A stretch of 64,000 nt of DNA from Gemmatimonadota bacterium (GTDB taxonomy: Bacteria; Gemmatimonadota; Gemmatimonadetes; Gemmatimonadales; GWC2-71-9): positions 37,377 through 101,376 of the forward strand of contig JAZDCY010000016.1 in assembly GCA_036679645.1 (NCBI GenBank), in the 5' to 3' direction. The position numbers and the translations under genes were made by a program. This document shows positions 202 through 22,130 of the stretch, in pieces. Numbering within the stretch: position 1 is the first letter of the stretch; every line of letters begins with the position of its first letter. The notes under the pieces were generated by a model. It had not been told where the DNA came from. It saw only the letters and a program-made list of their open reading frames with translations, and did no database searches.

Positions 202-536
202 GACCGCTTCTTCTCGTCACCCGTTCCCGGTGTGAGCACCTCGGCGACGCGCCCGCGCTGAATCACGAGCCGCGATTCGCCGCTCTTTATCGTGAGCTCG
301 TCGTCTTTCACCTTGATGACCTCACCCACGATGCCCCCGTTCGTGACGACGCGGTCGCCCCGTGAGATCTCCGCAAGGCGGGCCCGGTGCCGTTTCTCCT
401 GCTGCGAACGGGGGCGGATCAGCAGGAAATAGATGATGCCGATGAAGGCCGCCATCTGAAACAGAAAGATGCCGAACCCAGGGCCGCCGGCCCCGCCGGA
501 CGGGGCGAACAGCAAAAACAGGGTGCTCAGGTTCAC
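198..536 (-). CDS. yajC: Preprotein translocase subunit YajC
   Basis: TM segment then IYFLLIRPRSQQEKRHR and GDRVVTNGGIVGEV. Start placed at GTG 536, which overlaps the tgt stop (GTGA). Confidence 0.92.
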   Translation of the reverse strand: MNLSTLFLLFAPSGGAGGPGFGIFLFQMAAFIGIIYFLLIRPRSQQEKRHRARLAEISRGDRVVTNGGIVGEVIKVKDDELTIKSGESRLVIQRGRVAEVLTPGTGDEKKRS

Positions 537-1666: not shown

Positions 1667-1667
1667 G

Positions 1668-1718
1668 TCACACGATAGCCATCGCGTCGCCGTAGTTGTA
1701 GAGGCGATATCGCTGAGC
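1668..1718. repeat. Left att-like direct repeat: displaced copy of the queA 3' end
   Basis: tcacacgatagccatcgcgtcgccgtagTtgtagaggcgatatcgctgagc matches 17466-17516 at 50/51 positions (1696 T vs 17494 C). Similarity continues to 1725 with third-position changes. Confidence 0.93.
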
Positions 1719-1727
1719 GACCGCCAT
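1668..1727 (-). CDS. Putative 19-aa mini-ORF (MAVAQRYRLYNYGDAMAIV) formed from the displaced queA tail, coupled to tgt
   Basis: ATG at 1727 is in frame with TGA at 1670-1668, one base before the tgt ATG. Weak SD-like AGGT 9 nt upstream. Translation is unproven. Confidence 0.45.
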   Translation of the reverse strand: MAVAQRYRLYNYGDAMAIV

Positions 1728-1743
1728 GACCGCCCAACCTGCG

Positions 1744-1966
1744 GTTTCAATCCACGCCCGCGCGCGAGCGGGCGACCTGGGTCTTCGCGTGTGTCTACAC
1801 GCTGATGTTTCAATCCACGCCCGCGCGCGAGCGGGCGACCTCGACATTCTGAGCAACGCACTAACGACGTTTCAATCCACGCCCGCGCGCGAGCGGGCGA
1901 CTCGGACATGGCGCGCGTCGTCGATGTCCTCGCGTTTCAATCCACGCCCGCGCGCGAGCGGGCGAC
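1744..1966 (-). CRISPR. CRISPR array with 4 identical 33-bp repeats (GTCGCCCGCTCGCGCGCGGGCGTGGATTGAAAC) and 3 spacers
   Basis: Repeats at 1744-1776, 1807-1839, 1869-1901 and 1934-1966; spacers of 30, 29 and 32 nt. 7-bp stem CGCCCGC/GCGGGCG and 11-nt 3' tag ending ATTGAAAC, typical of I-C repeats. Confidence 0.98.
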
Positions 1967-2148
1967 TGACTACTGCTAACTCTTTGTAGTTGAATGGCTT
2001 CAAAAGCCGGTCGCGCGAACCGGCTCCGGGTGAGCAAGGTTGGGCTACTATCGGCGCGAGTGCAAACGGTCAAGCAGTTGTCAAAGAGCGCGTTAGCCGT
2101 GGTCGCGAACCCCAGGCGAAAGATGCACCAGCTAGAGGTTCGCGGCTA
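1967..2148 (-). promoter_or_regulatory. CRISPR leader
   Basis: Lies between cas2 and the first repeat, relatively AT-rich next to the repeat, with several CGCGAACC/GGTTCGCG motifs like those of I-C leaders. Confidence 0.7.
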
Positions 2149-2439
2149 TCAAATAATCAGCGGTCCCTCCAGATCGACGCTCGGCTTCGCGCCGTGATGC
2201 TCCACCCGATGACGCCAATTCCTTCCCAGGAAGTAGAACCGCAGGCTGTCTTCCTCAGGTCGATAGAGATCGAGCAGACGCAGTTTGAACTGCGCCCACT
2301 GTGTCGGGTCGAGCTGGCACTCGAATACCGAGTTCTGCACCCGTTGGCCAAAGCCGACGCAGGTCTTCGCGACGTGCCTGAGGCGTTTGCGGCCCTCCCG
2401 GGTTGTCGTCGCTACGTCGTACGTCACCAAGACAAACAC
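2149..2439 (-). CDS. cas2: CRISPR-associated endoribonuclease Cas2
   Basis: [30 protein letters not shown]; I-C-like sequence. Confidence 0.97.
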
Positions 2440-2454
2440 AATGGCGTCCTCCGG

Positions 2455-3486
2455 TTACTTCCACACGAACGCCGGATAGGCATCGAGATCGCCGCGGAGT
2501 AGCCGCGCCAGGAGCCGCGCCTGCAGGTGGATCAACAACCCTACCGTGGTTTGCTCGCCCAGGAAGGGGTGTGTGATCTCATCCTGCTTGCGCTTCTGAT
2601 ACGCGATCAGAACCGTCTTTCGCGTGTCCTCGGACATCTCGACTCCACCGGATTCCGTCTTGCGGAAGCCCTTCGCGTGGACCTGCTGGCGGTTGATGAG
2701 CGTGAGGGCGAGCCGATCCGCCAGGAACGGTCGGAACTCCTCGATGAGATCGAGCGCGAGTCCGGGTCGGCCTGGACGGTCGCGGTGGAGGAAACCGACC
2801 TGGCTGTCCAGCCCGGCCGCCTCACAGGCGGCTCGCGCATCGTGCCCGAGCATGGCGTACAGGAACGAGAGCAGCGCGTTGACCGGATCCAGCGGCGGCC
2901 GGCGGTTGCGCCCGGTAAACGCAAAGCCGTCGGGCTGCCCAGTGATCAGGTGGCCGAACACGGCGAAATAGATGCTGGCGCTCTCCCCCTCGATCCCGCG
3001 AATCAGGTCGAGCCGGTCCGCCGCCTGGACCTGTTGGATGGTGTGGGCCAGACGCGCCGCCGCCGCCTGCACAGCCGCCCGACCTTGGCCCTCTGGATAG
3101 TCTCGAACGCTCCGGAGCAGCACGGTCCGTGCGTTCGCGACCTTCGCAGTAACGAGATTCCGCGCAATGACGGCGCTCCGAGACTCGTCGTCGGCGCGGC
3201 GGTACTGCTCGCGACGCAGCAGGACGTTGCCGGGTGTGAAACCGAGCACGCGGGCAAGGAACTTCCCCTGCTCGCTCAGGAACGAGATGGCGATACCCCG
3301 TTCGGCGCACGCGTGCATTAGCCACGGGCTGATGTTGACGAGACCGAAACACACGATCCCGCCGAGCGTGTGGAGCGGCAGCTGAAGGCGGGTCTCCTCC
3401 CCGAGTTTTACCTGGAGTGCCTCCCCGTACTTCGAGACGTACGCGCCTTGCGTCGTCACGAACAGGGTATTCAGGTGCTGCTTCAC
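2455..3486 (-). CDS. cas1: CRISPR-associated endonuclease Cas1 (I-C type)
   Basis: LNTLFVTTQGAY, IRGIEGESA, RNRRPPLDPVNALLSF, GFLHRDRPGRPGLALDLIEEFR. Confidence 0.98.
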   Translation of the reverse strand: MKQHLNTLFVTTQGAYVSKYGEALQVKLGEETRLQLPLHTLGGIVCFGLVNISPWLMHACAERGIAISFLSEQGKFLARVLGFTPGNVLLRREQYRRADDESRSAVIARNLVTAKVANARTVLLRSVRDYPEGQGRAAVQAAAARLAHTIQQVQAADRLDLIRGIEGESASIYFAVFGHLITGQPDGFAFTGRNRRPPLDPVNALLSFLYAMLGHDARAACEAAGLDSQVGFLHRDRPGRPGLALDLIEEFRPFLADRLALTLINRQQVHAKGFRKTESGGVEMSEDTRKTVLIAYQKRKQDEITHPFLGEQTTVGLLIHLQARLLARLLRGDLDAYPAFVWK

Positions 3487-4169
3487 GGTGTCGCGCCTTT
3501 TGCCTCATCGAGCGTGACGCCGACGGCGCGGGCGAGGTAACGGGCCGCCGAGCCGCGGGCGCGCCCCATAGCATCGGGGAGGCATATGTGGAGCAGGGAG
3601 CAGCGGTCGCATTTGGGCTCGCGTCGCGCCCGCGGCGTGCGGCGCGACGTGATGAGTTCGTGCAGGCGCGCGGCCGTTCCCTCGGTCAGGCGTCTGAGCG
3701 GAGCGTCAAAGGTCACGTCATGGCGCTTCCGCGTGCGGCCGTAGTACAGGGCCCCAGCCGGAACCTCGGTGTGCAGCATGTCTTCGAGGCACAGCGCTTG
3801 GGCACACAGTTGCACCTTGTCTGCCTCGTGGCGCTTGGGACGGCCGCGTTTGTACTCGACGGGGAACACAATCTGGCTGTCGCCAGCCGCGCGGAACTCG
3901 ACTATGTCTGCCTTGCCCACGAGGCCCAACCGGGTCGATCGAAGCGCCAGGCCCCGCGTGACGCGAACGCCCGACCGGGTCTCGGGCCGGCCGTCGTGCG
4001 CCTTGTCGTGCATATGACGCCCCTCGACGGTCAGGCGGTTCTCGGCCCAGAGGCCCTCGATGTGGATCAGGGCGCACTGCCGCTCGCAGAAGAGCAGGTG
4101 TTGGAGGGCGGAGATGGGGAGGAGGTCGTCCTCGGTGAAGCCTGCTTCCGCCCCACCCACAGGGGTCAC
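3483..4169 (-). CDS. cas4: CRISPR-associated protein Cas4
   Basis: ISALQHLLFCERQ, GKADIVEF, PVEYKRG, QLCAQALCLE, CDRCSLLHIC (Fe-S Cys cluster). Confidence 0.97.
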   Translation of the reverse strand: MTPVGGAEAGFTEDDLLPISALQHLLFCERQCALIHIEGLWAENRLTVEGRHMHDKAHDGRPETRSGVRVTRGLALRSTRLGLVGKADIVEFRAAGDSQIVFPVEYKRGRPKRHEADKVQLCAQALCLEDMLHTEVPAGALYYGRTRKRHDVTFDAPLRRLTEGTAARLHELITSRRTPRARREPKCDRCSLLHICLPDAMGRARGSAARYLARAVGVTLDEAKGATP

Positions 4170-4579
4170 GGACGGACTTCTCCAGGCAACTCCGCGAGAA
4201 TCGCGTCGTTGAGACGCCGTGCCAGTGCCAGCGCCGCGCGCGGCTCATCCGGAGCCGGCTCGGCGGGCTCTCCCGGGTAGCGGAACTTCCAGGCGTAGTC
4301 GGTAAGGCCTCCGCTCTCGCGGATCACCTGCTCGAGGTCCGGCGCGATCTCAAGCACCTGGCGCCCCAGATCGGCAATGTTGTGCGTCTTCCGAAAGATG
4401 CGTCCGTGCCACGTGAGGAAGCCTTTGAGCGCCTTCTCGGCAGCCTGCTGGCAATGGAACAGGGCGTCTCCCGCAAGTGGCGGTTCGACGTTGCTGATGA
4501 GCTCCGCGGCGCGCAGGTCGTTCGCCGCCTTGATCAGCCATGCGCGGGTCTCGGCAACGAACTCGGGATCAAGCGGCAT
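4166..4579 (-). CDS. HEPN domain protein (COG2250-like)
   Basis: AWLIKAANDL, FHCQQAAEKALKG, KTHNI, KFRYP. Start MPLDP at 4579 overlaps the MNT stop; its own stop overlaps the cas4 start (GTGA). Confidence 0.88.
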   Translation of the reverse strand: MPLDPEFVAETRAWLIKAANDLRAAELISNVEPPLAGDALFHCQQAAEKALKGFLTWHGRIFRKTHNIADLGRQVLEIAPDLEQVIRESGGLTDYAWKFRYPGEPAEPAPDEPRAALALARRLNDAILAELPGEVRP

Positions 4580-4925
4580 GGAGCAGCTTCCCTTCGCGCA
4601 AGACGGTCGCTGGGAGAGAGGCGGGTACGCGTGTGCGGCGATCGAACGCGGTGCTGGTCCACACGATGACATCCGCCGCTGTCCCGATCCCCCACAGCGC
4701 TTCGTGGGCCAGCCGGGTGCCCCGCCGGTCCGGTGTAGCGTCGTCGGGCACGATCACCATGAGATCGTAGTCGCTGTCCGCGTCGGCGTCGCCGCGGGCT
4801 TTGGAGCCGAATAGGTAGACGCGCTCCGGGTCGTATGCGTCCACGAGGCGGCGGACGATCTCGGCAAGCGCCGGATCGCGGTCTGGGAGCTGGCCCGTGG
4901 GCCTTCCCTGAGACTCAGGCATCAT
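4569..4925 (-). CDS. Minimal nucleotidyltransferase (MNT) domain protein
   Basis: VYLFGSKARGDADADSDYDL (GSx10DxD) motif; directly upstream of the HEPN gene. Confidence 0.9.
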   Translation of the reverse strand: MMPESQGRPTGQLPDRDPALAEIVRRLVDAYDPERVYLFGSKARGDADADSDYDLMVIVPDDATPDRRGTRLAHEALWGIGTAADVIVWTSTAFDRRTRVPASLPATVLREGKLLHAA

Positions 4926-4981
4926 GAACGATCATCTTGCCGGAAGGCACGCGATAGTTGACCAGGCGTACTCGGAAGCAC

Positions 4982-7127
4982 TCACACTACCCATGCGCTC
5001 GTGTCCTTCTGGCTCAGCAAGTGTTCCTGCCGCAGGACGCCAGCCATGTAACCGAGAAAGTCGGCCTGGTACTCCAAATCGCCCAGGCCGTATAGCCCCA
5101 GGCCCCGATCGTAGCGGTCGGTGTGAAGCTTATCAAGCCCGAGGTCGATGATCCGCCCAGGCCACATCTGGACACTGTAGGTCAACAATTCCGTCGGTGA
5201 GATTTTCTTTCTGTTCCGCACTGCCTGTGCCAGGCCTGCATCTACAATGACTGTCGCCGTCTGCTGCGGGATAACGCGGCAGAGGTGCGCGACTCCCCGT
5301 CGGCAGTGGCCGTGGGCATATGGTCGGTACTCCATGCGGTTCTCATCCTCGATCAGTTTGCGCGCTTGGTCCTCAGCGCCAGCCGTCCATTCCTTCCGCA
5401 TGGCTTCCGTCGCGAGCCAGGTTGTTCCCAGCTCGGGATCGTTGAGTTGGCTCCTACTGATGCGGTGGAGTGCTCGCCGAGGCACCTCGAAGGCAGGATT
5501 TCGTCGGAAGCGGGCGTCGCGGAGTCGAAGGTCCCAGACCTCCACCTCCTCCGCGTACTCGCCACCCCGGTTGACTCGACCGCCGACCTGAATCAGGCTG
5601 GCGGTGGACGCCGATTCCCGGAAGCCGGTACGGAACGACAAGTCCATCCCGGCTTCTACACAACTGGTTGCCACAAGGACCCAGTCATCGATCTTCCCTT
5701 CCTGCAGGCGAAGCTTCATCCGCTTCACAACCAAGTCCCGATGAGCGGGCGCAAGAGCAGTCGAAAGATGTAGCACGTCGTGGCCGGCTAGGCGCATCGC
5801 TCGTGCAACTACCGCGGCCGTCTGCACGGTGTTGACGACGAGTAACCGCGGACCAGGCTTCTCCGACACGAACTTCAGAAGTCCGTCCAGGTCAAGAGCC
5901 GGCTCCAGTTCATCCTGATCGGCTTCATTCTGGCCCGCTTTGGTAATCCTGCGCTCCACGCGGACGCGCCGACCTTCCGCTCGTCGGAGCTCGTCCCTGA
6001 GCTGTCTGTTGCCTACGAGATCCGGCACGGGCGGCATTCGCTTCTCGGATCCCGTTCGGATCAGCTCCCGGTACTCGGGAAGCTCCCAAAACCGCGGCAG
6101 CGAGCCGCTAGCGAGTACAAGGTGCCCACCCCAGTCGTCTGTCCACGTCTCCAGCCATCGCCACACCTGTGGCCAGAGGTGCGAGGGCATAGCCGCGTGC
6201 ATCTCGTCCACGAAGACGGCCGATCCTGGCAACTCGTGCAGCTTTCGCAACCGGGCTGGATGATGGCTGCCCAGGGTTTCGAAGAATTGCACCGCAGTCG
6301 TGACAATGATTGGCGCCTTCCACAGCGTTGCGAGTTGTCGCAGCTCCAAGTCCTCGAAGTCGGCCCGGTGGTGATGCTCGGCGACCACGTCTTCCGGGCG
6401 CTCACCCTCCAGCACCAATGCCTTGCGGTACACGTCCACAGACTGTGTGATGATGTTCGTGTACGGCAGGACGACAACGATGTGGCGCAACTGAGGTTTT
6501 CCTTCGGTCGCCACGCGCAGGAGGTGGGCCATTACTGCCGTCGTCTTGCCGCTCCCCACCGGAGCATCGCAGGCACGGATCGCTGGCTCAATCGCGGCAT
6601 CCCGGCAGGCTTCAAACACCCGTCGGCGCGCTTCATTCCGCTGCTGTTCTCGTGGTTTCTTTCCCTTCGGTAACCCGTCGACGTACCGCTGCAGTGCCGC
6701 CGCGCGCTCATCCCATCGGGTCTCGATGCCCGGCGTCTCGACCTCACCGCCATAGTGCCGTGCCGTGTCACCATGGTCAGCGTCTACGAGGCACGATAGG
6801 GCCAATCGACGGGTAAAGCCGCACGGCTGCAATGCCTTCGGTTTAGCCTTCGGTAACTCCGGACAGCCAGCCGAACGGTGGAGATTCCGATACCCGTCGA
6901 GTCGGCCTTTCGCATCGACGTGGTCCGCTACAACAAGACCACCTGGGGTCTCGCGCCTTAACTGGCGGAACGGTCGCCCCTGTGGTTCAAGGAAATCCTC
7001 CTTCAGACTGAACAGCCCGGCATGATGAGCGGCGACTAACGCTACCGATTCCTGCCAGTTAAGGCGATCCAGTTCGGCCACGCCTGCGTCCTCATGCGCA
7101 ATCACTAACCGTTTGCGTGAACTCTGC
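4982..7127 (-). pseudogene. cas3: cas3, 3' part (distal HD motifs plus SF2 helicase), IS-interrupted
   Basis: IAHED, AAHHAG, LVDADH, APVGSGKT (Walker A), FVDEMH (DExH), LSTAL, QVGGRVNR. Joins the 5' part in frame once the IS is removed. Confidence 0.93.
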
Positions 7128-7266
7128 TGCGGATTTCGGACCCATTCGGACACCTGTTTCGGAATCATCCGGACACCCATTTCGGTTTTATCCGGACACC
7201 TGTTTCGGAGCCATCCGGACACCCATTTCGGACATTCGGACACCTGTTTCGGAGATGTCGGACACC
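7128..7266 (+). repeat. IS21 left-end subterminal repeats
   Basis: CGGACACC core at 7147, 7170, 7193, 7216, 7237 and 7259 (21-23 bp spacing), mostly followed by (TG/CA)TTTCGG. Confidence 0.9.
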
Positions 7267-7334
7267 TTCGCTGAGGGAGTGGGCGCTGGATAACTGAGGC
7301 GGATTCGGTCTCACTTCAGGGACTTTTCCCCGGA

Positions 7335-8990
7335 GTGATGCTGATGCCCGCTCGGAGGTTGTCCATGCGCAAGATCGTAGACCTGCTGCGGTTGCAGGCG
7401 GAGGGGCTGAGTGTGCGGCAGGTGGCCGACAGCTTGGGCCTGCCGCGCAGCACCGTGGCCGACTACATGGGCCGGCTGAAGCGGGCCGGGCTGACGTGGC
7501 CGCTGCCGGATGAGGCGGACGAAGCGGAGCTTCTCGAGCGGCTGTTCGGCGCCGAGCGCTCTCGGGCTGGTGAGCGGCCGATGCCGGACTGGGCGACGGT
7601 GCATGCCGAGCGCAAGCGACCGGGTGTGACCCTGCACCTGCTGTGGCTGGAGTACAAGCAGGTCCATCCCGAGGGGTATCAGTACACTCAGTTTTGTGAG
7701 TACTACAAGCGCTGGCGTGCGCGGCTCGATCCCGTTTTACGGCAGGCCTACAAGGCGGGAGAGAAGGTGTTTGTCGACTACGCCGGTCAGACCATGCCCG
7801 TCGTCGACGGCGAGACCGGCGAGGTGCGGCAGGCGCAGATCTTCGTCGGGACCCTAGGAGCGAGCAACTACATCTATGCCGAGGCCACGTGGACGCAGCG
7901 CCTGCCCGATTGGACGGCCGCGCACGTGCGGATGTACGAGGCATTCGGAGGTGTCCCGGCCCTGACGGTGCCCGACAATCTGAAAACAGGCGTACGGCAC
8001 GCCTGCTACTACGAGCCGGATCTCAATCCCACATATCAGGACCTGGCCACGCACTACGGGACGGCGGTGCTGCCGACGCGGGCGGCCAAGCCCCGGGATA
8101 AGGCCAAAGTGGAGACCGGCGTGCAACTGGTGGAGCGCTGGTGCCTGGCCCCACTCAGGAACCACACCTTCTTCAGCCTCGCCGAGTTGAATTGCGAGCT
8201 GCGGACGCATCTCGACACCCTCAACGAGCGACCGTTTCAAAAACTGCCCGGTACCAGACGGCAGCTCCTCGAGACGCTGGAGCGGCCGGCCTTGAAACCC
8301 TTGCCGCCGACGCCCTTCGAATACGCCGAGTGGAAGAAGGCCCGCGTCAACATCGACTACCACGTCCAGGTCGATAGCCATCTCTACAGCGTCCCCTACA
8401 TGCTCGTGCGTCAGGAAGTGGACGTGCGCCTCACGGCGAAGACGGTAGAGGTGTTGCACCGCGGCAAACGCGTCGCGGCCCACCGGCGTAGTCATCGTCC
8501 GGGCCGCTTCACTACCGAGCCGGGCCACCGTCCCAAATCCCACCAGCGGCATCTCGAGTGGACGCCATCGCGGCTGATACGCTGGGGAGCCACGCTGGGG
8601 CAGCACACCGGCGAACTCGTTGCACACATCCTCGAGAGCAGACCCCATCCCGAGCAGGGATACCGCGCCTGCCTCGGCCTCCTCAGTCTCGCGCGCAAGT
8701 ACGGCCCGGAGCGAGTCGAAGCCGCGTGCACGCGCGCCCTGCGCACTCGGGCAACGACCTATCGATCCGTGAAATCGATCCTCGAACATGCACTCGATCG
8801 TCTGCCGTCCGAGGAGGAGCAGATCACCCTGTCGCTTCCCGCCGACCACGCCCATGTGCGCGGGTCGACCTATTACGCCACGCTCACTACAGCAAACCAT
8901 CGACCGCATGCACGAACTGCGATTGACGGGCATGGCCCAAGCCCTCGACGAACAACGGGGCCAACCCGATCTGCACGACCTCGCCTTTGA
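7335..8990 (+). CDS. istA: IS21 transposase IstA
   Basis: HTH start, GEKVFVDYAG, VPDNLKTGV, PRDKAKVETGV (DDE). Start may be 7338 or 7365; the C-terminus reads past the usual stop position. Confidence 0.93.
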   Translation: MMLMPARRLSMRKIVDLLRLQAEGLSVRQVADSLGLPRSTVADYMGRLKRAGLTWPLPDEADEAELLERLFGAERSRAGERPMPDWATVHAERKRPGVTLHLLWLEYKQVHPEGYQYTQFCEYYKRWRARLDPVLRQAYKAGEKVFVDYAGQTMPVVDGETGEVRQAQIFVGTLGASNYIYAEATWTQRLPDWTAAHVRMYEAFGGVPALTVPDNLKTGVRHACYYEPDLNPTYQDLATHYGTAVLPTRAAKPRDKAKVETGVQLVERWCLAPLRNHTFFSLAELNCELRTHLDTLNERPFQKLPGTRRQLLETLERPALKPLPPTPFEYAEWKKARVNIDYHVQVDSHLYSVPYMLVRQEVDVRLTAKTVEVLHRGKRVAAHRRSHRPGRFTTEPGHRPKSHQRHLEWTPSRLIRWGATLGQHTGELVAHILESRPHPEQGYRACLGLLSLARKYGPERVEAACTRALRTRATTYRSVKSILEHALDRLPSEEEQITLSLPADHAHVRGSTYYATLTTANHRPHARTAIDGHGPSPRRTTGPTRSARPRL

Positions 8991-9654
8991 GGACCGGCTC
9001 GCCCTGCTCGTGGAACGCGAAGCCACCGCCCGGGCCGATCGCAGATTGACCCGGCTGCTGCAGCTCGCAAAGCTGCGTCTCCAGGCGAGCGTCGAAGAAC
9101 TCGACTTCAAGACCCCTCGTGGACTCGATCGCTCGGTCATGTTACGGCTCGCTGGCTGCGACTGGATCCGCCAGCATCAGGTCGCCCTGCTCATCGGAGC
9201 CACGGGCACGGGCAAGACCTTCATCTCCTGTGCCCTCGGCCACAGTGCCTGTCGACAGGGACTGCGGGTGCGCTACGTCCGGCTGCCTCGTCTCTTGCAC
9301 GACCTGGCGCTCGCCCAGGCCGACGGCTCCTACGGCAAACTCTTGACCGCCTTAGCGAAGACAGAACTCTTAATAATCGACGACTGGGGCCTGGCACCGC
9401 TCGGTGATCGCGAACGCCGTGACGTGCTCGAAGTCATCGAAGATCGCTACGGCCGCCGGGCCACGATCGTGACCAGCCAGCTCCCCGTCGAGCACTGGCA
9501 CGAACTCATAGGGGACCCCACCTTTGGGGACGCGATCCTCGACCGCCTCGTGCACGGTGCACATCGGATCACGCTGAAAGGCCGGTCGATGCGCCGCAAG
9601 GAAACGACCAAGAAGGAAACGAAGAAGAAACCGACAACGAAAGAAGGAAACTAG
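8908..9654 (+). CDS. istB: IS21 AAA+ helper ATPase IstB
   Basis: GATGTGKT (Walker A), LLIIDDWG (Walker B), TSQLP, AILDRLVH. The first in-frame ATG after the istA overlap is 8908. Confidence 0.93.
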   Translation: MHELRLTGMAQALDEQRGQPDLHDLAFEDRLALLVEREATARADRRLTRLLQLAKLRLQASVEELDFKTPRGLDRSVMLRLAGCDWIRQHQVALLIGATGTGKTFISCALGHSACRQGLRVRYVRLPRLLHDLALAQADGSYGKLLTALAKTELLIIDDWGLAPLGDRERRDVLEVIEDRYGRRATIVTSQLPVEHWHELIGDPTFGDAILDRLVHGAHRITLKGRSMRRKETTKKETKKKPTTKEGN

Positions 9655-9677
9655 GCCAGCACCCACACCTCGGTGTC

Positions 9678-9772
9678 GGTGTCCGACATCAGCCGAACGG
9701 ACTGTCCGACTTCAACCGAACCAGGTGTCCGACATCAACCGAACTGGGTGTCCGGATGCACCGAAATCCGCA
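9678..9772 (-). repeat. IS21 right-end subterminal repeats
   Basis: GGTGTCCG at 9678, 9724 and 9747, plus a degenerate copy near 9701 (23-bp spacing), inverted relative to the left-end units. Confidence 0.85.
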
Positions 9773-9999
9773 CTCTGCCGAAGTACCGCCTGATTAGCCT
9801 CGTCCAGTTTGCCGAGGTCGTGGTACAGCGCCGCCGCATCGACCCAGCCAATGAAGGCTTCCTGGTCACCGGCGTAAAACGCGACGGCGCGCTGAGCATT
9901 ACCCACCGTATCGCGACGGACATTGGTGACGTGCGCGACGTACGTCTGTGCCGACACGCCATCCCGCCGGCTATGTGCTAGAGGCGGATCGCTCGACAT
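9773..9999 (-). pseudogene. cas3: cas3, 5' part (proximal HD nuclease motifs)
   Basis: MSSDPPLAHS...YVAHV...AALYHDLGKLDEANQAVLRQS, then the IS right end. Confidence 0.92.
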
Positions 10000-10009
10000 C
10001 GCCGCTGCC

Positions 10010-11017
10010 TTACAGGAGCTGGCTGCACCACTCCGGCAGTTCGACACACAGGTCATACAGCTTGGCGTTCCTCAGGACGCCGTGGAAGTCATTCGGCAGC
10101 GCCCTGGGCACATCGTACTGATCGGTGAGTGGAACTTGGTCCGTTGACGGCGGCATTCTCTCGTCGTCCCTGGGTTCCCACTTCCGTTTCGGGGTGAGCT
10201 TCTCGATGAATTCGAATTCCGAGAATGAGCCGAGGCTGTATTCGCTGCCTGGCTCGTTCTCGTGCTCGGCGTACCAAGCATGGCGAACGTCAACCATGCC
10301 ACGTGGCGCGGACCGAGTATGCGGGTACGCGTAGCGGATCAGGCCCAACATGAGCGCGATGTCTTTCGCAGTACAGCCACTGTTCCTGGCGGCCGTCGGG
10401 TTGACAAAGAAGGGCATGCAGTAGACACCGTGCTCGACGATTCGACTTGCCAGCGGCGCCATGCCGCGATCCTTCGACTCCTGAGCGCTAGCCTTCTTTG
10501 TGAGGGTGTCCCGAAGCACTCGCACCGGAGCGGCCGATACGCCGATCGGAAAATGCGCGACGCCAGTGCGGATGTACTTGCGGTCACCAGCGGTGCTGCG
10601 CCTCCCGCCCTCAGGTGCGTCCTCGCCCTTCTCAAGAAAGGTGGCTCCGAAGGTGCGAGCGTCCCAGTACTTGTTCGCCACCTTGTTGGGGTCCTCATCG
10701 ATGAGTTCAACGACTCTCTTCCAGGCTTCGGCGGCTTCCTTGACGTCAGCGAAGCCGCGCTCACGGGATTCGAGAATGGAGAACTCATCGTCATTCAACC
10801 GAAACTGACTCTTCAAGTGCTGCCAGACGTCGCCATCCTTCTGCTCTACCAGATCCCGCATCTTGCGCTTGAAAGACACCCCCGTGATGTATCCACGTCC
10901 GTCGTGATTTCGCTGGCGCGGGTCGCTCTCGCGATCCGGGTCGCCGTTGGGGTTCGAATTCCGCACCTCGATAACCAGCAGGCCGGTGGCTCGGGCAATA
11001 CCGTGCTTCGCGTTCAT
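10010..11017 (-). CDS. cas7: Cas7 (Csd2/I-C family, divergent)
   Basis: EVRNSNPNGDPD, ITGVSFKRKMRD, YWDARTFG. Confidence 0.93.
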   Translation of the reverse strand: MNAKHGIARATGLLVIEVRNSNPNGDPDRESDPRQRNHDGRGYITGVSFKRKMRDLVEQKDGDVWQHLKSQFRLNDDEFSILESRERGFADVKEAAEAWKRVVELIDEDPNKVANKYWDARTFGATFLEKGEDAPEGGRRSTAGDRKYIRTGVAHFPIGVSAAPVRVLRDTLTKKASAQESKDRGMAPLASRIVEHGVYCMPFFVNPTAARNSGCTAKDIALMLGLIRYAYPHTRSAPRGMVDVRHAWYAEHENEPGSEYSLGSFSEFEFIEKLTPKRKWEPRDDERMPPSTDQVPLTDQYDVPRALPNDFHGVLRNAKLYDLCVELPEWCSQLL

Positions 11018-11436
11018 TGCGTACTGTCCTTCCCGTTTTGGCCATGTTTCTCATCCGGCGGTGAGGCGAGGAACCCGAGAAGGAGCTGGGCCTTCGCTAC
11101 GTCGTCTACCTCGATCGGCAGGTCGGCGGCGCCGAGTGTGGCCGCGAGCGGCTGGTACTGCCGCAGCTTCTTCCTAGCCTCATTGACGGCGATCCGTTGC
11201 TGCTCCCTTTCCTCGCCCTGTGGCGTCTGGGCCGTCTTCGCCCACCGCACGTACTCCATCATTCGTTCGCCGAGGTCGGCAACCGCGGCCGCGGGGTTGT
11301 CCAGGGCTCGGCGCATCAGGGACGTGCCGATCAGGGAATTGGGCAACTGGCCCTTGCGAACAACGGTGCAGTAGTCCTTGTGCAGTGTGTCGGCCAGCGC
11401 CAGGACCTGGCCAACCTGGTACGGCGCATTCTTCAT
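11014..11436 (-). CDS. cas11: Internally translated small subunit Cas11c (140 aa)
   Basis: AAAGGAG SD 6 nt before an in-frame ATG (MKNAPYQVGQ) in the cas8c 3' part. Internal Cas11 translation is established for I-C systems. Confidence 0.75.
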   Translation of the reverse strand: MKNAPYQVGQVLALADTLHKDYCTVVRKGQLPNSLIGTSLMRRALDNPAAAVADLGERMMEYVRWAKTAQTPQGEEREQQRIAVNEARKKLRQYQPLAATLGAADLPIEVDDVAKAQLLLGFLASPPDEKHGQNGKDSTQ

Positions 11437-13227
11437 GTACTGCTCCTTTCGATGGCCGAGGGCGTCGAGCAGGATCGCGGAAACGGCTACCGCCCGCAGT
11501 GCTACCTCGTCTGAGAACCGTGCGTAGTCAGGTCGTGCTCTGTGCTTCTTCTGAGCCCTCAGGGGTCCGTAGGCGTGCTGGGCGCCGAAGACGCCGATCA
11601 ACAGCGGCGTGAGACGCCGGACAAGCATCCTCAGCATCGACCGCGCTGCTGGCTCCCCCTTGCCCTCTGTTCCAAGCATCACGTCGAGCACCTCGCCGAG
11701 CCCCGGCCCGACGACCGCCGCCGACTCGCTGCCACCACGCGCCCACTGATGCGACAGCAGCCGCACCACTTGGTCCGGATACGGTGGGAACGGCTGACCC
11801 TCGCCTGCCTCCAGTTTCTTCCCGTTTCGCGTCTCTTCAGGCAACCACAGCCGCACCTGCGGGGCATTTCGCTTCACCGCCTCAACCCACTTCTGAGCCG
11901 CGTCCAGCACTTGCTGAACGGTTGGTGATTCGGCTAAGACGACCTGAGCTTGTCCCTTTGACATCTCCCTGATCACGAATAGCTGAAGGCGTGACTTCGG
12001 GTGTTGCCTCGCAACCCCCTTCAACGCTCGGACCAGAGCGGCGGCATCGACTTCGAATCGTTGTTCGTCCACACCCATTCCGCCACCGATGTATCGTGCG
12101 GTGTTGGCGTCAAGAGCAGGAGAGTCTTCGACGTAGGCGATAAGTACGTCCGGCTTCTCGACCTGCTGGCCCCCTGCCGATTCGAACCGGCTGCTCCCGA
12201 CGAACTCCCAGGTCTGGCCTTGGCGAGAATCAGCGGTGATGAACTCGAGTGCTTCCTTCAAACAGTCAGCGCGGGCCTTGGCAATGGTGCAGCGAGCTGC
12301 GCTGAACATCGAGGAAAGCGGAAAGCGCTTTCGTCCGATCTTTTGCTTCCTCATGGAATAGACAGGAAGGTCGATCTTTGGAAGCGTTTCCCGCTCGAGG
12401 GCGGCCGCTTCACCAGTGAGCGCATCGATACCAACCGTCGCGCTGTCCTTCTGGGTGTGCGAGTGCTTCCACGTTGGCTCGCGTGGCAGATGCTCCCTCA
12501 GCAAGTTGCCAATCCTCTCGCTGTAGAGAGGATGACTGAACAGATTGGGGTCGCTCACGTCAAATGCCAGTTGGACGGTCATCGTTGGGCGGCGGCCGTT
12601 TTCATCGGGCGGGCCTTTTCCTACGAGCAGCTGTTCGACCTGGTCGATGGCGGAGAGCGTTCCTTGCTTGAGCCCTGCAAGGGCGACCTCGCCGATGCTG
12701 GAAAGTAGCGTGTCGGGTTGCTGCGCCGCGATCACAAAGCGTTTGCCAAGTGCTGCAACGACCTGGCCCTGGTCGTTCATCTGTTGAGCGCACTTCACCA
12801 GTTCGTTGGCCTTGCGGTCTCGGAGTCGGACCCACAGGTCCTGCGTCCTTTTGGACCAGAGACACACGGATCCCTTCTGTGACGCTTCCTCCAGAGTCGT
12901 GACACGCCGAGCATCATCCAGAGTTCTACGCCGTCTCTGATGCTTGTCGAAGCCAAGCTCTTGCCAGACATCGGCAGAGACCTCCGAGAGTGGCTGCTGC
13001 ACGCGAACGACGGGAAAGCTGTTCTGGTTACCTTCCATCACAGTCCACGACGGCCAGTCCTCGTGCGTTACTTCTTCAATCGCCACTACTTTGCCTTGAC
13101 TGTTCAGCCTGACGCGCAGGCATGGCGCTGAGCGACCGGGTTCTGGAACGCGCCTATGCTTCCGTTCTAGCCGAAGCGAGGGTGTTCTTTCCAGCGCCTG
13201 CCAGAGCCGCCATGTCTCATTGAGCAC
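11014..13227 (-). CDS. cas8c: Cas8c-like large subunit (divergent)
   Basis: 737 aa between cas5 and cas7, MLNE start, C-terminal NAPYQVGQVLALADTLHKDYC helical region. Call rests partly on position. Confidence 0.8.
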   Translation of the reverse strand: MLNETWRLWQALERTPSLRLERKHRRVPEPGRSAPCLRVRLNSQGKVVAIEEVTHEDWPSWTVMEGNQNSFPVVRVQQPLSEVSADVWQELGFDKHQRRRRTLDDARRVTTLEEASQKGSVCLWSKRTQDLWVRLRDRKANELVKCAQQMNDQGQVVAALGKRFVIAAQQPDTLLSSIGEVALAGLKQGTLSAIDQVEQLLVGKGPPDENGRRPTMTVQLAFDVSDPNLFSHPLYSERIGNLLREHLPREPTWKHSHTQKDSATVGIDALTGEAAALERETLPKIDLPVYSMRKQKIGRKRFPLSSMFSAARCTIAKARADCLKEALEFITADSRQGQTWEFVGSSRFESAGGQQVEKPDVLIAYVEDSPALDANTARYIGGGMGVDEQRFEVDAAALVRALKGVARQHPKSRLQLFVIREMSKGQAQVVLAESPTVQQVLDAAQKWVEAVKRNAPQVRLWLPEETRNGKKLEAGEGQPFPPYPDQVVRLLSHQWARGGSESAAVVGPGLGEVLDVMLGTEGKGEPAARSMLRMLVRRLTPLLIGVFGAQHAYGPLRAQKKHRARPDYARFSDEVALRAVAVSAILLDALGHRKEQYMKNAPYQVGQVLALADTLHKDYCTVVRKGQLPNSLIGTSLMRRALDNPAAAVADLGERMMEYVRWAKTAQTPQGEEREQQRIAVNEARKKLRQYQPLAATLGAADLPIEVDDVAKAQLLLGFLASPPDEKHGQNGKDSTQ

Positions 13228-13900
13228 GGTGTACCTCCGGCGGCGTCGGGTGCTCGTAGGACATCACCCCGTTGACGATGCTCCAGTTCTGCTTAAAGGC
13301 GGGGTTCAGTTGACGGCGCTCCCACATCGAATGCAACAGAGATGGTATGATGTCGTTGATGCTCGCCTCCGGTGCGGTGCCTTCGCGGAACGTGCCGAAG
13401 TAAGTGGGGACGAACTCCTTCCATCCCAGACAAGGCGTGTAGAACGTCTGTCCGTGTGTCAAACGCTTCTCAAAAAGTCGCTTCAGCTCTGGTGCCCAGT
13501 CCTTTCCACGGCGGCGCCTCAACTGGGGACGGTCCTTTCCAACGGTGCTGCGCTTGACGCGCATCACACCATAGATGCGGTAGCAGACGTCCACGAGAAT
13601 AGTCGCGTTGAGCTGGTAATTGTTGTTCCTCCTGATTTGGTCCTGCTTACGAAGGGGGCCACCGTAGTTGGTCACGTAGCGCTCGTATCTGATCGGGCAG
13701 CAGATTTCTACACGGGTCGGGTGGATGTACGCGTGGGGCCGCCAAACCACTGCGTCAAACATTCCCCTGGCCGCCGAATACGTGGGCACTGGATACGAAA
13801 TCGGCGTTGCCCCGGTATCGGGCCGCGTGAACATTGCCGCCGGGCCAGCGACCTCAAGTTGGACTACGTATTGAGTGTCGCTCCGGGACGGGTTCGGCAC
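13217..13900 (-). CDS. cas5: Cas5 (I-C-like, divergent)
   Basis: LEVAGPAAMFTRPD, SYPVPTYSAARGMF, ILVDVCYRI, PCLGWKEF; AGGAG SD before GTG 13900. Confidence 0.92.
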   Translation of the reverse strand: MPNPSRSDTQYVVQLEVAGPAAMFTRPDTGATPISYPVPTYSAARGMFDAVVWRPHAYIHPTRVEICCPIRYERYVTNYGGPLRKQDQIRRNNNYQLNATILVDVCYRIYGVMRVKRSTVGKDRPQLRRRRGKDWAPELKRLFEKRLTHGQTFYTPCLGWKEFVPTYFGTFREGTAPEASINDIIPSLLHSMWERRQLNPAFKQNWSIVNGVMSYEHPTPPEVHRAQ

Positions 13901-14143
13901 AGTGTCTCCTCGCTCCCTCCGAGACGGTGTAGCTCTCTTACGGTACCATCACTCCTGTCTCCTGGCGGAGTCGAGTACGCCACCCCGCGGATCGCCTTTC
14001 CGGCCCGTCCTGCGCCCGCACAGGGTCGCGTGCCCACGCCGCCTCCGTATTGACATTCCGCACGTCCCTCCTACCGCTACCTGCCTCCCACCCACTCACG
14101 CCTGGAGTCGTATCATGCATCGCTCTGCTACCGCCTCGCGGCC

Positions 14144-14497
14144 TCAGGTCTCTTCAGTGGGCTCCGACAACAGCGCGCCCGTCCGCTCGACCAGGCCGGG
14201 GAGTTCATCGCTGATGACCTGCCAGACAATCTCGTGGTCCAGCATGTCGTATCCGTGAACCAGGATGTTACGAAAGGCCACGATGCGGTCTACCTCACCG
14301 GCCCGCGCTGCGATCTCGGGAGTCATTCGATGTAGCCGGTTCATCGCTTCGCCGATGATCTGGAGGTTGCGCTCCACCGCCTGACGCACCAGCCGGTTCT
14401 CCAGATACTCGGCCAGCGACGACTGCGCCGTGGCCTCGAGGACAAACGAGCCGGCGTCGCGGACGTCTTCCAAGAGCTTCAGCGCCTCAGGCTGCAT
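14144..14497 (-). CDS. HepT-like RNase toxin (DUF86/HEPN)
   Basis: AVERNLQIIGEA and the Rx4H motif FRNILVHGY; start MQPE overlaps the MNT stop by 11 nt. Confidence 0.9.
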   Translation of the reverse strand: MQPEALKLLEDVRDAGSFVLEATAQSSLAEYLENRLVRQAVERNLQIIGEAMNRLHRMTPEIAARAGEVDRIVAFRNILVHGYDMLDHEIVWQVISDELPGLVERTGALLSEPTEET

Positions 14498-14795
14498 ACA
14501 ACTCCTGGCGGCTCCGCTCGACTGCCGCAATGAAGTACGGGTTTCTCAACGACCGGCGCGTGAGGAGATCGACGTCCCGGGCAAGAAGTTCCCGGAGCCC
14601 GTCCCAGAGACCGAAGTATTGATCCGCCAGCGTCATCTCCCCGGTATGCTGGAACTCCACCAGGAGATCCAGATCACTGTGGTCGGGGTCGAACGCGCCA
14701 GTGGTCGCCGAGCCGAATACGTCGAGCCGAGAAACGTGGTAGCTGCGGCAGAGCTGCTGGATGGCCGCCTGGTTCTGCTCAAGCAATGATATCAT
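14487..14795 (-). CDS. MNT antitoxin (MntA-like)
   Basis: LDVFGSATTGAFDPDHSDLDLLVEF, DVDLLT, LRNPYF. Confidence 0.9.
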   Translation of the reverse strand: MISLLEQNQAAIQQLCRSYHVSRLDVFGSATTGAFDPDHSDLDLLVEFQHTGEMTLADQYFGLWDGLRELLARDVDLLTRRSLRNPYFIAAVERSRQELYAA

Positions 14796-15182
14796 CTGCT
14801 CTTGCCTCGCAGCTGTGGGACACCCGCCCCGAGCGGACCCGAAGAGACACCGAAGCGCCGACCTTGGCAAGGTGTCTCATTCCGCCCCCTACGCGAGTTG
14901 GCAACACCGTCACGAGCGTGCCAATACGGCGCTGCATCCAAGGCGCTCTCCCTAATTTCCCCTCCCGCCGCTCCCGCCCCACCACGCCCCGCGCCCTCCG
15001 CCGCTCGGTGTCCTCCAGGGATTCGTAGGCGTAGTTGTTGAGAAAGCTCTCCAACAGCTCGAGCTCCACCCGTGCACGTCGCGCAACTGCCGGATGGTCG
15101 GATCCGCGATCGTCGCTGTAGCGCCGGCGCGCCGTCTACCAACTGCCATCGGGATCTCCCTCCGTCGTTTCCGCCGACCTAA

Positions 15183-15415
15183 CATCCCTCGACGGTCATC
15201 ATTCCACTCACCACCAATCCGACAGACGATGCGGAGCCTCTCCGCGTGCGTGCCCCCCCGGCGGACGATTGCGCGGGGACCCCGATCTGCTGATCGACCA
15301 GCTCCGAGCCATCGACAACCGCCGCCGGATACGAGGCCCGCTCACCCGCCTCGACGGCGCCCTCATGCGGCGTGTCGGATTGGCCATCCGTGAGGTCGTC
15401 GATCTGGTCGAGTAG
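15183..15415 (+). pseudogene. MazF/PemK-family toxin remnant (frameshifted, 5'-truncated)
   Basis: Frame A from 15183 reads HPSTVIIPLTTNPTDDAEPLRVR. After a shift at the C7 run (15253-15259) the frame reads GGRLRGDPDLLIDQLRAIDNRRRIRGPLTRL...AIREVVDLVE*. In-frame TAA at 15180. Not in the ORF track. Confidence 0.75.
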
Positions 15416-15494
15416 CGCCCGTTGCCGATGCAGCGACGGACCGCCAGCCCAACTCCACACAAGATCACCCCCCCTGTGACACTCCACCCGCGAA

Positions 15495-16262
15495 TCAAGC
15501 CACCCCGAGCGGATCCACAGGCACAACCTGCCCCACGCTATCCAGATGCCACCGGCCCCCCTCCGCCAGTAACGTGCACCAGAGGTCCCAGCCCCTCTCC
15601 AGCAGCGCGCCGGCCCGCACCGGCACCTTGATCGGGCCGTAAAGAGCCGGCTCCTGATACCGCGGCCGCAGCCACAGCAGCCCGGGCTCGATCCGTGTTA
15701 CCTCAAAACAGGTATGCTCCGCGTCGGCGTCGAGGTCCCACACCGGAGCGCGCCCGCGGCACGCGCGAGCCAGTCGTTTCTTAGCCCGCTCGGCCCGGAG
15801 CAGTTTGCCCTGAAGACGGCGGGCCAGCCGCGCTATGTCGGCCGCCACTGTTGCATCCACGTACCCCTCGTCCGCTAACCACAGCGCAAACTGCTCCAGC
15901 TCCGGTAGCAGCTCGGGCGTCTGCCTCAAGTGAAGCAGCATGGTGTCGCCCAGCCATGAGATCACAAACTCCCGCAGCACCGTCGGCAGGTGTTCGCGGC
16001 CGACGCTCTCGCCGCGCGACGCCCGTGCATCCCCTGGTTGCCTCGTGGGGTGCCGCGCGTGTATCTGATGCTCGCCGCAACTCGGCTGCTCCAGTCCGGG
16101 ATCGGCGTCGTGCAGATAGATAGAGAGCGCAGCACAGAGCTGGGTCGCATCGCGGCCCTGTCCAGAGGCCGCCAGCTCATACGCGGCGCCGATTTCGTCG
16201 ATCGTGGGCGATGCCCCCTCCGGGACCGGAGGCTGAGCGACGCCGCGATTCCAATACATCAC
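15495..16262 (-). CDS. Hypothetical protein
   Basis: 255-aa ORF with a protein-like C-terminal beta region (FEVTRIEPGLLWL...GPIKVP...GRWHLDSVGQVVP); family not recognised. Confidence 0.65.
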   Translation of the reverse strand: MMYWNRGVAQPPVPEGASPTIDEIGAAYELAASGQGRDATQLCAALSIYLHDADPGLEQPSCGEHQIHARHPTRQPGDARASRGESVGREHLPTVLREFVISWLGDTMLLHLRQTPELLPELEQFALWLADEGYVDATVAADIARLARRLQGKLLRAERAKKRLARACRGRAPVWDLDADAEHTCFEVTRIEPGLLWLRPRYQEPALYGPIKVPVRAGALLERGWDLWCTLLAEGGRWHLDSVGQVVPVDPLGVA

Positions 16263-16292
16263 GATTCCCTGTCTTGCTCCTGCACGAGGGCC

Positions 16293-17294
16293 CTAATGGT
16301 CCGCCCGGCCTCCGCTCGCACGCCCCTCCTCAACCAGCTTGATCCGCCGTTCCCGAGGCCCGAACGCCGCCGGGAACCGCACCACCCGATCGTACAGCGG
16401 CGCCCGCCGCATCATGTGCTCGTCGTCCGCCGGCGCGTCTGGCCCCCAGCTCTCGGCTTCCGATGGCCATTCCTCGATGAGCCCCATCGAGGCGAGCGGG
16501 ATCAGGAAGCCGAGTTCCACCGTGGTGCCAACCAACCAGGGTGGGACGTCCTGCACGTCCCTCGTCCACGGAGGCGAGAGCATGAGGCCCAGCTCGGCGG
16601 GAATCCACCAGTTCCCGTCCACCTGTCCGAGACCCCACATCTCGTAGGCCTCGCCGCCCTGGTGCATCACTGGCCCTTCAGGGAGCGGAAGCAGCAGCGT
16701 GTCCCGCACGTTTGCGTTGCGGAACAGCGCGCGGAGCAGCCGCGTGTAGAGGGATCCTGCGCCTTCGGGCGTGGCCAACCGCCGGCCCAGTGGGGTCAGC
16801 TCGTAGCTCCCAGTGCGCACCCGCAGACAGCCGAGATAGCGGGCCGTCTCCCGCATCTGCGTAACCGGCAACCACTCCTCGCCGCGCATCCAGGGGGGCT
16901 CCTCGTCGTCCTCCAGCAAGTCGGCATCCTCCGGTCCTGGCGGCGGGGCGCTGCGCGACCAGAGGCGCTCGCCGAGGGTGGAGGCGAAGTGGCCCTCGAA
17001 CGTCCCATCGCGCCGCGCCGGTACGCGGCCCGCGTCGGCCAGGGCCAGGAGCAGCTCGCGCAAGTCGGCGAAGTAGCTCGCATCCCCCAGCTCGTCCAAC
17101 CGCACGTTGCGGTTCAGCCGCAGCGGTCCCCGCGTGTACCAGTCGCCGGCCAGCAACTTGCGGACCTCGGACGGCGACAGGCCGAACAGATCGGGACGCC
17201 GCGCGTAATCCTCGGCGTCCACCGCGGGATGGGAGCCGAGCTGCTCGAGTAACAGGCGGCTGTCGCGCGCTTGGGACGGGAAGGCGTGGCGCAT
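16293..17294 (-). CDS. Hypothetical protein
   Basis: ~333-aa ORF (start MRHAF assumed) with a wHTH-like YELTPLGRRL segment; family not recognised. Confidence 0.65.
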   Translation of the reverse strand: MRHAFPSQARDSRLLLEQLGSHPAVDAEDYARRPDLFGLSPSEVRKLLAGDWYTRGPLRLNRNVRLDELGDASYFADLRELLLALADAGRVPARRDGTFEGHFASTLGERLWSRSAPPPGPEDADLLEDDEEPPWMRGEEWLPVTQMRETARYLGCLRVRTGSYELTPLGRRLATPEGAGSLYTRLLRALFRNANVRDTLLLPLPEGPVMHQGGEAYEMWGLGQVDGNWWIPAELGLMLSPPWTRDVQDVPPWLVGTTVELGFLIPLASMGLIEEWPSEAESWGPDAPADDEHMMRRAPLYDRVVRFPAAFGPRERRIKLVEEGRASGGRADH

Positions 17295-17465
17295 TGCCCG
17301 TCGCACACGGGTCGCGGTGGTTGTACCGGTCCCGGCCCATCGCTCGTTTGACACGAAGGTGAATCTGCATCCCGAGACGTGCGGCCGAAACCCCAATTGG
17401 GCGCGTGTCGCATTTTGCGTGTTGCCTGTTGCACTTCTGCGGCACCCGCTCTGTAGCCCGACTCC

Positions 17466-17516
17466 TCACACGATAGCCATCGCGTCGCCGTAGCTGTAGA
17501 GGCGATATCGCTGAGC
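17466..17516. repeat. Right att-like direct repeat (3' end of intact queA)
   Basis: Matches 1668-1718 at 50/51 positions; identity stops exactly at the queA stop codon. Confidence 0.93.
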
Positions 17517-22094: not shown

Positions 22095-22130
22095 GCTCGG
22101 TCAGGTGAGCACCGTCTGATAGACGCTGCG

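Follow-up and report, generated by a model that had tools for sequence, protein, structure and literature searches.

Integrative islands that target the 3' ends of genes carry a replacement terminus, as do ICESt1/3 in fda, the Staphylococcus aureus pathogenicity islands (SaPIs) in guaA and P4-type islands in tRNA genes. Hotspots for defence islands and other accessory genes, flanked by conserved core genes, are likewise a known class. Homology-facilitated illegitimate recombination (HFIR) is known by experiment in Acinetobacter, Pseudomonas stutzeri and Streptococcus (S. pneumoniae), and sequential displacement by HFIR has been invoked for the displaced 3' ends found at V. cholerae type VI secretion system (T6SS) and Rhs loci (PMC5361080 and its references). 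In Pseudomonas, an exchangeable effector locus lies beside tgt-queA and tRNA-Leu (PMC2647930). Here we analyse a 64-kb stretch (the window) of a Gemmatimonadota metagenome-assembled genome (MAG; 4.05 Mb, 100 contigs), in which 15.8 kb of DNA carrying CRISPR-Cas genes and toxin-antitoxin (TA) modules lies between queA and tgt and is bounded by a direct repeat of the queA 3' end. A first-pass annotation had read this DNA, positions 1668-17516, as one integrative element with the queA end as its attachment (att) site. Our comparisons indicate instead that this DNA is a patchwork assembled stepwise rather than a discrete mobile element, with the queA tail more likely to be a scar left by recombination than an att site.

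Within window positions 1-21000, the gene order on the minus strand is a GWxTD/TPR gene, queA, the 15.8 kb insert, a copy of the queA tail, tgt and yajC. The queA gene (S-adenosylmethionine:tRNA ribosyltransferase-isomerase; 17466..18521, minus strand; Pfam PF02547 Queuosine_synth, E=1e-129) is intact at 351 aa, and tgt (queuine tRNA-ribosyltransferase; 533..1666, minus strand; TGT, E=1e-144) encodes 377 aa. Repeat alignment places the functional copy of the repeated tail, comprising the last 18 codons and the stop codon of queA, at 17466..17523 and the displaced copy at 1668..1725, both on the minus strand. The 50/51 match at the queA stop codon described in the first-pass annotation (1668-1718 and 17466-17516) holds, and forms the core of a longer direct repeat identical at 55 of 58 positions. 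The upper copy forms the genuine queA terminus; the lower copy, ending TGA-C-ATG, runs straight into tgt. The alignment also bears out the two further codons with synonymous changes (GCC GTA versus GCG GTC) and the single replacement, AGC (Ser) versus AAC (Asn). Because this Ser belongs to a Y-S-Y-G-D-A-M motif conserved across the family and is Asn in the displaced copy, the displaced copy appears to be the decaying, non-functional one. By chance, a direct pair of 58-mers with at least 55 matches is expected ~2e-18 times in the 64 kb window. An assembly-wide search of the 4.05 Mb found the 58-mer at these two places only, with no further copies and no sister island elsewhere in the genome.

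Both junctions were recovered in a separate assembly. Logan contigs of run X1, probably the source sample and thus an independent assembly rather than independent data, match window positions 1-1776 and 14336-20000 without mismatch, span both junctions, and show a depth of ~99-114 across the insert and its flanks. The longest exact words common to the two tail copies are 29 and 21 nt, so that the copies could not have mis-joined a k=31 graph. An assembly artefact, foreseen by the first-pass annotation as a possible refutation, could be suspected in a 100-contig MAG that differs from the Logan contigs elsewhere in the window by indels of 34 and 36 nt; in view of the mismatch-free, evenly covered junctions and the short shared words, we rejected it as highly improbable. 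Neither an empty-site joint nor a circle joint was seen among the assembled contigs of X1, which cannot show rare forms.

Comparison of the queA-tgt junction across relatives, as the first-pass annotation had proposed, showed that empty sites are the rule and that other cargoes occur. When the tgt 5' and queA 3' flanks were joined into an 800-nt sequence, it matched contiguously across the junction in most of 61 relatives and ~400 same-family genomes, including the same-genus genome G002. Of 251 good-quality family genomes, nearly all contain a single occurrence of a conserved tail motif. Where the two genes abut, the queA stop and tgt start codons often overlap. Because the junction is contiguous in most genomes and the tail motif is single, the ancestral arrangement is queA directly followed by tgt. 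In a few genomes the gap is occupied by one or two ordinary genes, and no tail copy was noticed by tgt; as read from the translations, the cargo is a 382-aa protein without Pfam assignment in G036 and a DinB-like protein in both G007 and G304.

The closest comparison came from a homologue of the ~254-aa open reading frame (ORF) of the insert (15495..16262, minus strand; no family match), through which an ENA contig (L048) and a Logan contig (L049), each encoding an 86% identical protein, were found. The flanks of L048 match the window at 82-92% identity on the left and 89% over 8 kb on the right. Between queA and tgt, L048 carries in order ORFs of 332, 256 and 201 aa, an MNT (nucleotidyltransferase) gene with a truncated HepT gene, an MNT N-terminus fused to unrelated sequence, and 64 nt; the unrelated part of the fusion ends near a 48-nt match to another contig (C89) of the genome under study (G000). 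There are no cas genes and no clean queA-tail copy between queA and tgt in L048.

The junction at the queA stop codon is identical in the two lineages, and the next 2.4 kb are ~90% identical. Because this is the same level as in the flanks, the shared DNA probably forms an older layer that predates the split of this lineage and the L048 lineage. In the window, the older layer begins with a 333-aa ORF without family match (16293..17294, minus strand; 90-95% nucleotide identity to L048), followed by the ~254-aa ORF. Frameshifted peptides resembling MazF/PemK-type toxins come next (15183..15415, plus strand; VIIPLTTN... and ...LLIDQLRAIDNRRRIRGPLTRLDGALMRRVGLAIREVVDLVE followed by a stop; 93-95% identity to L048), read from stop-to-stop frames and likened by eye; they sit between the 254-aa ORF and a truncated gene. 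The latter comprises the first 18 codons (15096..15149, minus strand, by alignment and BLAST limits) of the 201-aa gene, a paralogue of the 256-aa gene. At ~15096, 54 nt into the 201-aa gene, homology to L048 breaks off. Because this gene is intact in L048 and cut after 54 nt here, the 13.4 kb block with an MNT-HepT pair, the cas genes and the CRISPR array must, on this comparison, be a later arrival that replaced the distal portion of an insert already in place.

The claim that 1668-17516 is one integrative element is not supported by this comparison. The repeat-bounded 15.8 kb is not present or absent as one unit; L048 shares the queA junction and the queA-proximal 2.4 kb only, with other distal cargo, and the cas block has its start not at the end of an element but 54 nt into a gene already resident in the island. 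Clustered at 90% identity, the island proteins have almost no partners outside this genome, L048, L049 and a further contig, L050. Two metagenome pattern scans gave no match to the joint of tail and tgt or to the left end of the island. A Tgt fragment (P0124) considered as a lead to a relative or donor turned out to be the C-terminus and was dropped.

A further breakpoint lies within tgt. Identity to L048 is 72% in its first 90 nt (1577-1666, codons 1-30) but 90% in the remainder. Because the drop at 90 nt is this sharp, one of the two lineages, the present one or that of L048, would have undergone a homologous crossover ~90 nt into tgt. The spacer before tgt also differs: TGA-C-ATG here, against a GTG start behind a 14-16-nt spacer with TAGATT in L048 and in the same-genus genomes G001 and G002. 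The first 90 nt of tgt are ~72-74% identical among this genome, L048 and G001.

Independently, a second insertion with scars has arisen in G147, a genome of another genus. There, an intact queA is followed by 10.4 kb of unrelated cargo (DUF5131, RibD_C, Ank/Clp_N), a 21-nt copy of the tgt start, ~65 nt, a copy of the queA tail, 117 nt and tgt. The tail copy is identical to the genome's own queA tail at 37 of 44 positions and ends in TGA; the ORFs tested in this insert, all of 110 aa or longer, include no recombinase. The two adjoining displaced pieces, a tgt start and a queA end, are what would be expected if DNA from the same locus of a relative had been joined illegitimately upstream of the resident junction. 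The 117-nt spacer (L067, G147:C186, 19-136) contains a strong palindrome (cccctctcccc ... ggggagagggg) resembling a repetitive extragenic palindromic (REP) element or a terminator.

In G001, a ~72-nt queA tail (AAYRAAVTESYRLYSYGDAMAIV, then a stop) precedes tgt. Beyond it lie a Ser/Thr kinase gene truncated at the DFG motif and then lower-GC DNA, and the contig ends 2.2 kb on (L011 / G001:C53, ~20119-22379). No full queA occurs anywhere in this 96%-complete assembly, and G001 could represent a second island or a deletion. The tail copies are thus ~45 nt long in G147, 58 nt here and ~72 nt in G001, and all contain the last ~45 nt, in three cases of which one (G001) lacks queA. A motif scan of the 251 family genomes returned G147 as the only genuine tail duplication; the displaced copy in the present genome escaped the scan owing to its Ser-to-Asn change, and G001 has a scar but no queA. 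Other candidates were set aside: a chance motif in G304, duplicates from two strains or contigs in G405, and contig ends in G244. G351, considered as a second case like G001, was uninformative, its contig stopping 33 nt past the match.

These comparisons divide the proposal of site-specific integration at the queA 3' end. Insertion at that place, displacement of a tail copy and an ancestral queA-tgt order all stand; the queA tail as the att site of a single element is not supported, given the tgt breakpoint at ~90 nt and given the scars of differing length and the tgt fragment in G147, which a site-specific crossover does not predict.

Searches for mobility genes support the earlier statement that the island has no integrase. 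Among all sizeable ORFs of the insert, Pfam, NCBIfam and PHROGs profiles detected no tyrosine or serine recombinase, no excisionase and no Tn7 protein, and on the same profile results an integrase hidden among the uncharacterised ORFs was rejected. Pfam gave no match to TnsA, TnsB, TnsC or TniQ in the insert, which therefore does not qualify as a Tn7-like CRISPR-associated transposon (CAST). The only mobility proteins detected are IstA and IstB of an IS21 insertion sequence that lies inside cas3 and has its own ends, IstA being the sole rve/Mu-type transposase or DDE integrase, and plasmid or replication genes were absent from the insert. The hidden Markov model (HMM) search extended to the genome, also suggested in the first-pass annotation, placed all PF00589 matches (9 segments at 8 loci) on other contigs. 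An exhaustive HMMER search gave ~300 cluster-representative relatives of the 333-aa ORF, which is not a recombinase by homology; the extra domains found in its relatives (PRiA4_ORF3, DUF6398, SEC-C, DUF6930, DUF7309) do not suggest recombination, and no recombinase lies near its sole word-index match, a distant homologue. In the library searched, no paper links queA with attB and an integrase, the sole match being tRNA-Leu beside tgt-queA in Pseudomonas (PMC2647930).

We propose, with about even confidence, that cargo has been displaced repeatedly at a queA-tgt hotspot, through homologous anchoring in the flanking genes and an illegitimate second joint. In this Gemmatimonadota family, the queA-tgt junction would be a recombination hotspot at which TA and defence DNA is swapped by the general recombination of the host. 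Incoming DNA from relatives with other cargo at the same locus would pair homologously in queA or in tgt, and its other end would be joined either homologously, giving a clean replacement with no scar, or illegitimately, leaving displaced gene ends, a process equivalent to HFIR or sequential displacement. An illegitimate joint just inside the resident copy of a flanking gene would preserve a short displaced gene end; in the present genome, the final 58 nt of queA beside tgt would be such a scar. The 15.8 kb insert would be the sum of at least two such events. The first would have brought the older layer common to the sister lineage, comprising the 333-aa ORF, the 254-aa ORF, the frameshifted toxin-like remnant and the start of the 201-aa gene; in the second, the 13.4 kb block (MNT-HepT, type I-C-like cas genes, CRISPR array) would have overwritten the distal older layer, and last, IS21 would have hit cas3.

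This proposal is favoured because empty sites are the rule in the family, because the insert has mosaic boundaries, because tgt contains a breakpoint and because scar lengths vary, and further because G147 holds a displaced tgt start beside a displaced queA end and because HFIR itself has experimental precedent. The conserved anchor beside variable cargo that HFIR implies is seen in all cases, with queA and tgt as the flanks, and orphaned ends of displaced genes are represented by the queA tail and the truncated 201-aa gene here and by the queA tail and tgt 5' fragment in G147. Truncated genes are numerous in the region, including the 201-aa gene start and the toxin-like remnant here and the truncated HepT and fused MNT genes of L048; such truncated TA genes and the lack of recombinases argue in the same direction. 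So does the arbitrary-looking right joint. Between the last, undegenerated CRISPR repeat and the queA-tail copy lie 18 nt (1726..1743, minus strand), against spacer lengths of 29-32 nt, and this stretch may be what is left of a truncated spacer, in which case the right joint would fall at an arbitrary break. The two synonymous differences at the inner edge of the tail copy fit donor and resident alleles, although three differences in all make weak statistics.

Several observations weigh against repeated displacement. With its exact end at the stop codon and the reading frame restored, the 51-nt near-identical core is also the classic signature of integrase-mediated insertion into a gene 3' end. 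HFIR is rare in experiments, and tail duplication, as judged by the motif scan, is rare in the family (~1% of genomes). GCGGTC lies to either side of the joint at 1720-1734; no joint based on microhomology could be demonstrated, and no donor was found in the metagenome scans, among the contigs bearing the CRISPR repeat or in the protein clusters. With L048 as the one close relative, the order of events is tentative, and the tgt 5' end may have changed in either lineage. With 9% neutral divergence, the probability of three or fewer differences between the tail copies is 0.24, so that the age of the tail copy is compatible with that of the older layer; for a dating against the split of G000 and L048, P ranges from 0.24 to 0.01 with the neutral rate assumed. 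This age is also compatible with an original single integration followed by internal replacement.

The last possibility is the basis of the strongest rival, in which a tyrosine- or serine-recombinase element with a replacement queA tail, probably the older layer, integrated site-specifically at the queA 3' end. Its integrase and distal part would later have been overwritten, in this lineage by the cas block and in L048 through rearrangements of TA genes. Such a decayed island would account for the 50/51 repeat ending at the stop codon, for an intact queA and for codon-level similarity over two codons more; its queA-side junction would be old, being identical in L048, the age of the tail copy would agree, and the distal part, the possible seat of an integrase, is rearranged in both lineages. 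Yet neither the insert nor L048/L049 nor the tested ORFs of G147 yielded an integrase or a remnant of one, a clean tail copy is missing from L048, independent tail copies differ in length with a tgt 5' scar added in G147, and no paper in the library searched ties queA to attB and an integrase. We therefore regard a decayed island as a serious alternative, though clearly the less probable one. A Campbell-type single crossover through RecA, between the chromosomal tail and circular DNA with at least 58 nt of queA tail (the excised circle of a relative, or a plasmid), would also give direct repeats bounding the whole insert and copies differing at synonymous sites, as two alleles would. It is nevertheless unlikely, since 58 nt of homology is a poor RecA substrate, the insert holds no plasmid or replication genes, and the breakpoints at 15096 and in tgt and the tgt scar in G147 would be left unexplained.

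It is similarly doubtful that the whole insert or the cas block is an integrase-less element moved in trans by a recombinase encoded elsewhere, or by one of two uncharacterised ORFs acting as a new recombinase. The PF00589 tyrosine recombinases at 8 loci on other contigs could serve in trans, and two uncharacterised ORFs adjoin the queA-side repeat; against this, the repeat-bounded unit differs from the unit that varies between relatives, relatives of the 333-aa ORF combine its domain with PRiA4_ORF3, SEC-C and DUF6930, none of them linked to recombination, the X1 contigs, which cannot show rare forms, include no empty site or circle, and with the 58-mer occurring only twice there is no similar island elsewhere in the genome. 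The corresponding claim about the site itself, that the last 45-58 nt of queA are a true att site of integrase-less defence islands, moved in trans or by the 333-aa or the 254/201-aa paralogue ORFs as a new recombinase, seems to us improbable to the same degree. If true, an att site served in trans or by a new recombinase would be a new integration system, which the evidence does not favour.

The genes of the later block are divergent but recognisable. Nearest the older layer lies a TA pair of MNT and HepT (14144..14870, minus strand; PF01909, PF01934). It is followed, on the minus strand at 9712..13900, by cas5, a cas8c-like gene (737 aa), cas7 and an N-terminal cas3 fragment with a weak HD-domain match, assigned by profile matches and by an 85%-identical operon in L050. 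The helicase part of cas3 (4982..7243, minus strand; PF22590, PF00270, TIGR01587) lies downstream of the IS21-family element, which was delimited by repeat search and Pfam (7133..9758, plus strand; istA 7335-8990, istB 8788-9654, multiple 23-nt terminal repeats). Within the cas operon, a second MNT-HEPN pair (4166..4925, minus strand; profile matches and L050 comparison) precedes cas4, cas1 and cas2 (2149..4169, minus strand; Pfam, NCBIfam). The CRISPR array (1744..1966, minus strand), found by repeat search, consists of four identical 33-nt repeats (GTCGCCCGCTCGCGCGCGGGCGTGGATTGAAAC) and three spacers, with the leader on the cas2 side.

Cas1 scored 499 bits as type I-C Cas1c against an NCBIfam cut-off of 385. 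Cas5c and Cas7/Csd2 were the best matches for their genes but remained below the NCBIfam cut-offs, as did Cas3, and Cas8 had no direct profile match, its distant homologues carrying PF09709. IS21 (7133-9758) splits cas3 (4982-10056); because cas3 is split here and intact, at 788 aa, in the 85%-identical operon of L050, CRISPR interference is probably disabled in this genome. The MNT-HEPN pair between cas3 and cas4 (4166-4925) is kept in L050 (6416-7130), the only close relative of this cas operon, and because of this conservation the pair looks like a stable component of the I-C-like variant, not a passenger.

The exact 33-nt repeat occurs in six other Gemmatimonadota contigs, none of which carries a queA tail. 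In two of them it is a solo repeat (L052 2295-2327 and L054 4411-4443) with no array or cas genes nearby; one adjoins what looks from its sequence like a ribbon-helix-helix/PIN-type TA pair, and the solo repeats look like remnants of deleted arrays.

Elsewhere in the window, the Logan contigs of X1 hold 36 nt more in cas8c, at 12287/12288, and 34 nt more in the istA/istB overlap of IS21, at 8887/8888. The additional 36 nt encode 12 residues, (N)YRYGLTDANVFP, which are present at exactly that position in the 85%-identical homologue P0006. Because P0006 keeps these residues, small deletions seem to be present in the deposited assembly, unless it represents a minority variant, and the unusual 200-nt overlap of istA and istB may result from the 34-nt gap. 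Upstream of queA, the GWxTD/TPR gene encodes 741 aa here and 436 aa in L048, which has an internal deletion of ~910 nt relative to this genome (window 19309-20219 versus L048 1603-1607).

The locus suggests that complete CRISPR-Cas and TA modules can enter a chromosome without a dedicated mobility gene, in a phylum that is little studied and mostly represented by MAGs. A tidy direct repeat of a gene 3' end is, on this evidence, insufficient for calling an att site. The queA-tgt interval offers a usable marker locus for defence cargo in Gemmatimonadota, and its scars, the displaced queA tails and the displaced tgt start, would form a readable record of successive displacements.

Compared with type I-C CRISPR-Cas systems, the cas genes agree in a Cas1c above cut-off, a repeat ending in ATTGAAAC, best though sub-threshold matches to Cas5c and Cas7/Csd2, and PF09709 in distant Cas8 homologues; they differ in having cas3 after cas7, an MNT-HEPN pair embedded in the operon, divergent effector genes and a cas3 split by IS21. 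With islands that target gene 3' ends, the locus shares a direct 3'-end repeat at both borders, an intact target and an empty site in relatives. Unlike them, it lacks an integrase and an excisionase, relatives differ in a unit other than the repeat-bounded DNA, the repeat length varies between independent cases, and G147 bears a scar of the downstream gene. Like hotspots flanked by core genes, the same interval holds different cargoes: TA pairs, CRISPR-Cas, a DinB-like protein, a 382-aa protein without Pfam assignment, and DUF5131. In the Pseudomonas locus, by contrast, integration is at tRNA-Leu with a phage-type integrase (PMC2647930), whereas here it lies between queA and tgt. The resemblance extends to the V. 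cholerae T6SS effector-immunity arrays and to the C-terminal displacement of Rhs and contact-dependent inhibition (CDI) genes, where cargo enters beside a conserved anchor, the old 3' end or cargo is pushed downstream, and orphaned gene ends and mosaic arrays accumulate with no element-encoded recombinase (PMC5361080). In contrast to those arrays, the anchor here is a housekeeping tRNA-modification gene pair, the cargo is CRISPR-Cas with TA modules, and the mechanism is read from scars only. Set beside these systems, the queA-tgt locus is a further example of a known process, an accessory-gene hotspot with displacement scars, in Gemmatimonadota.

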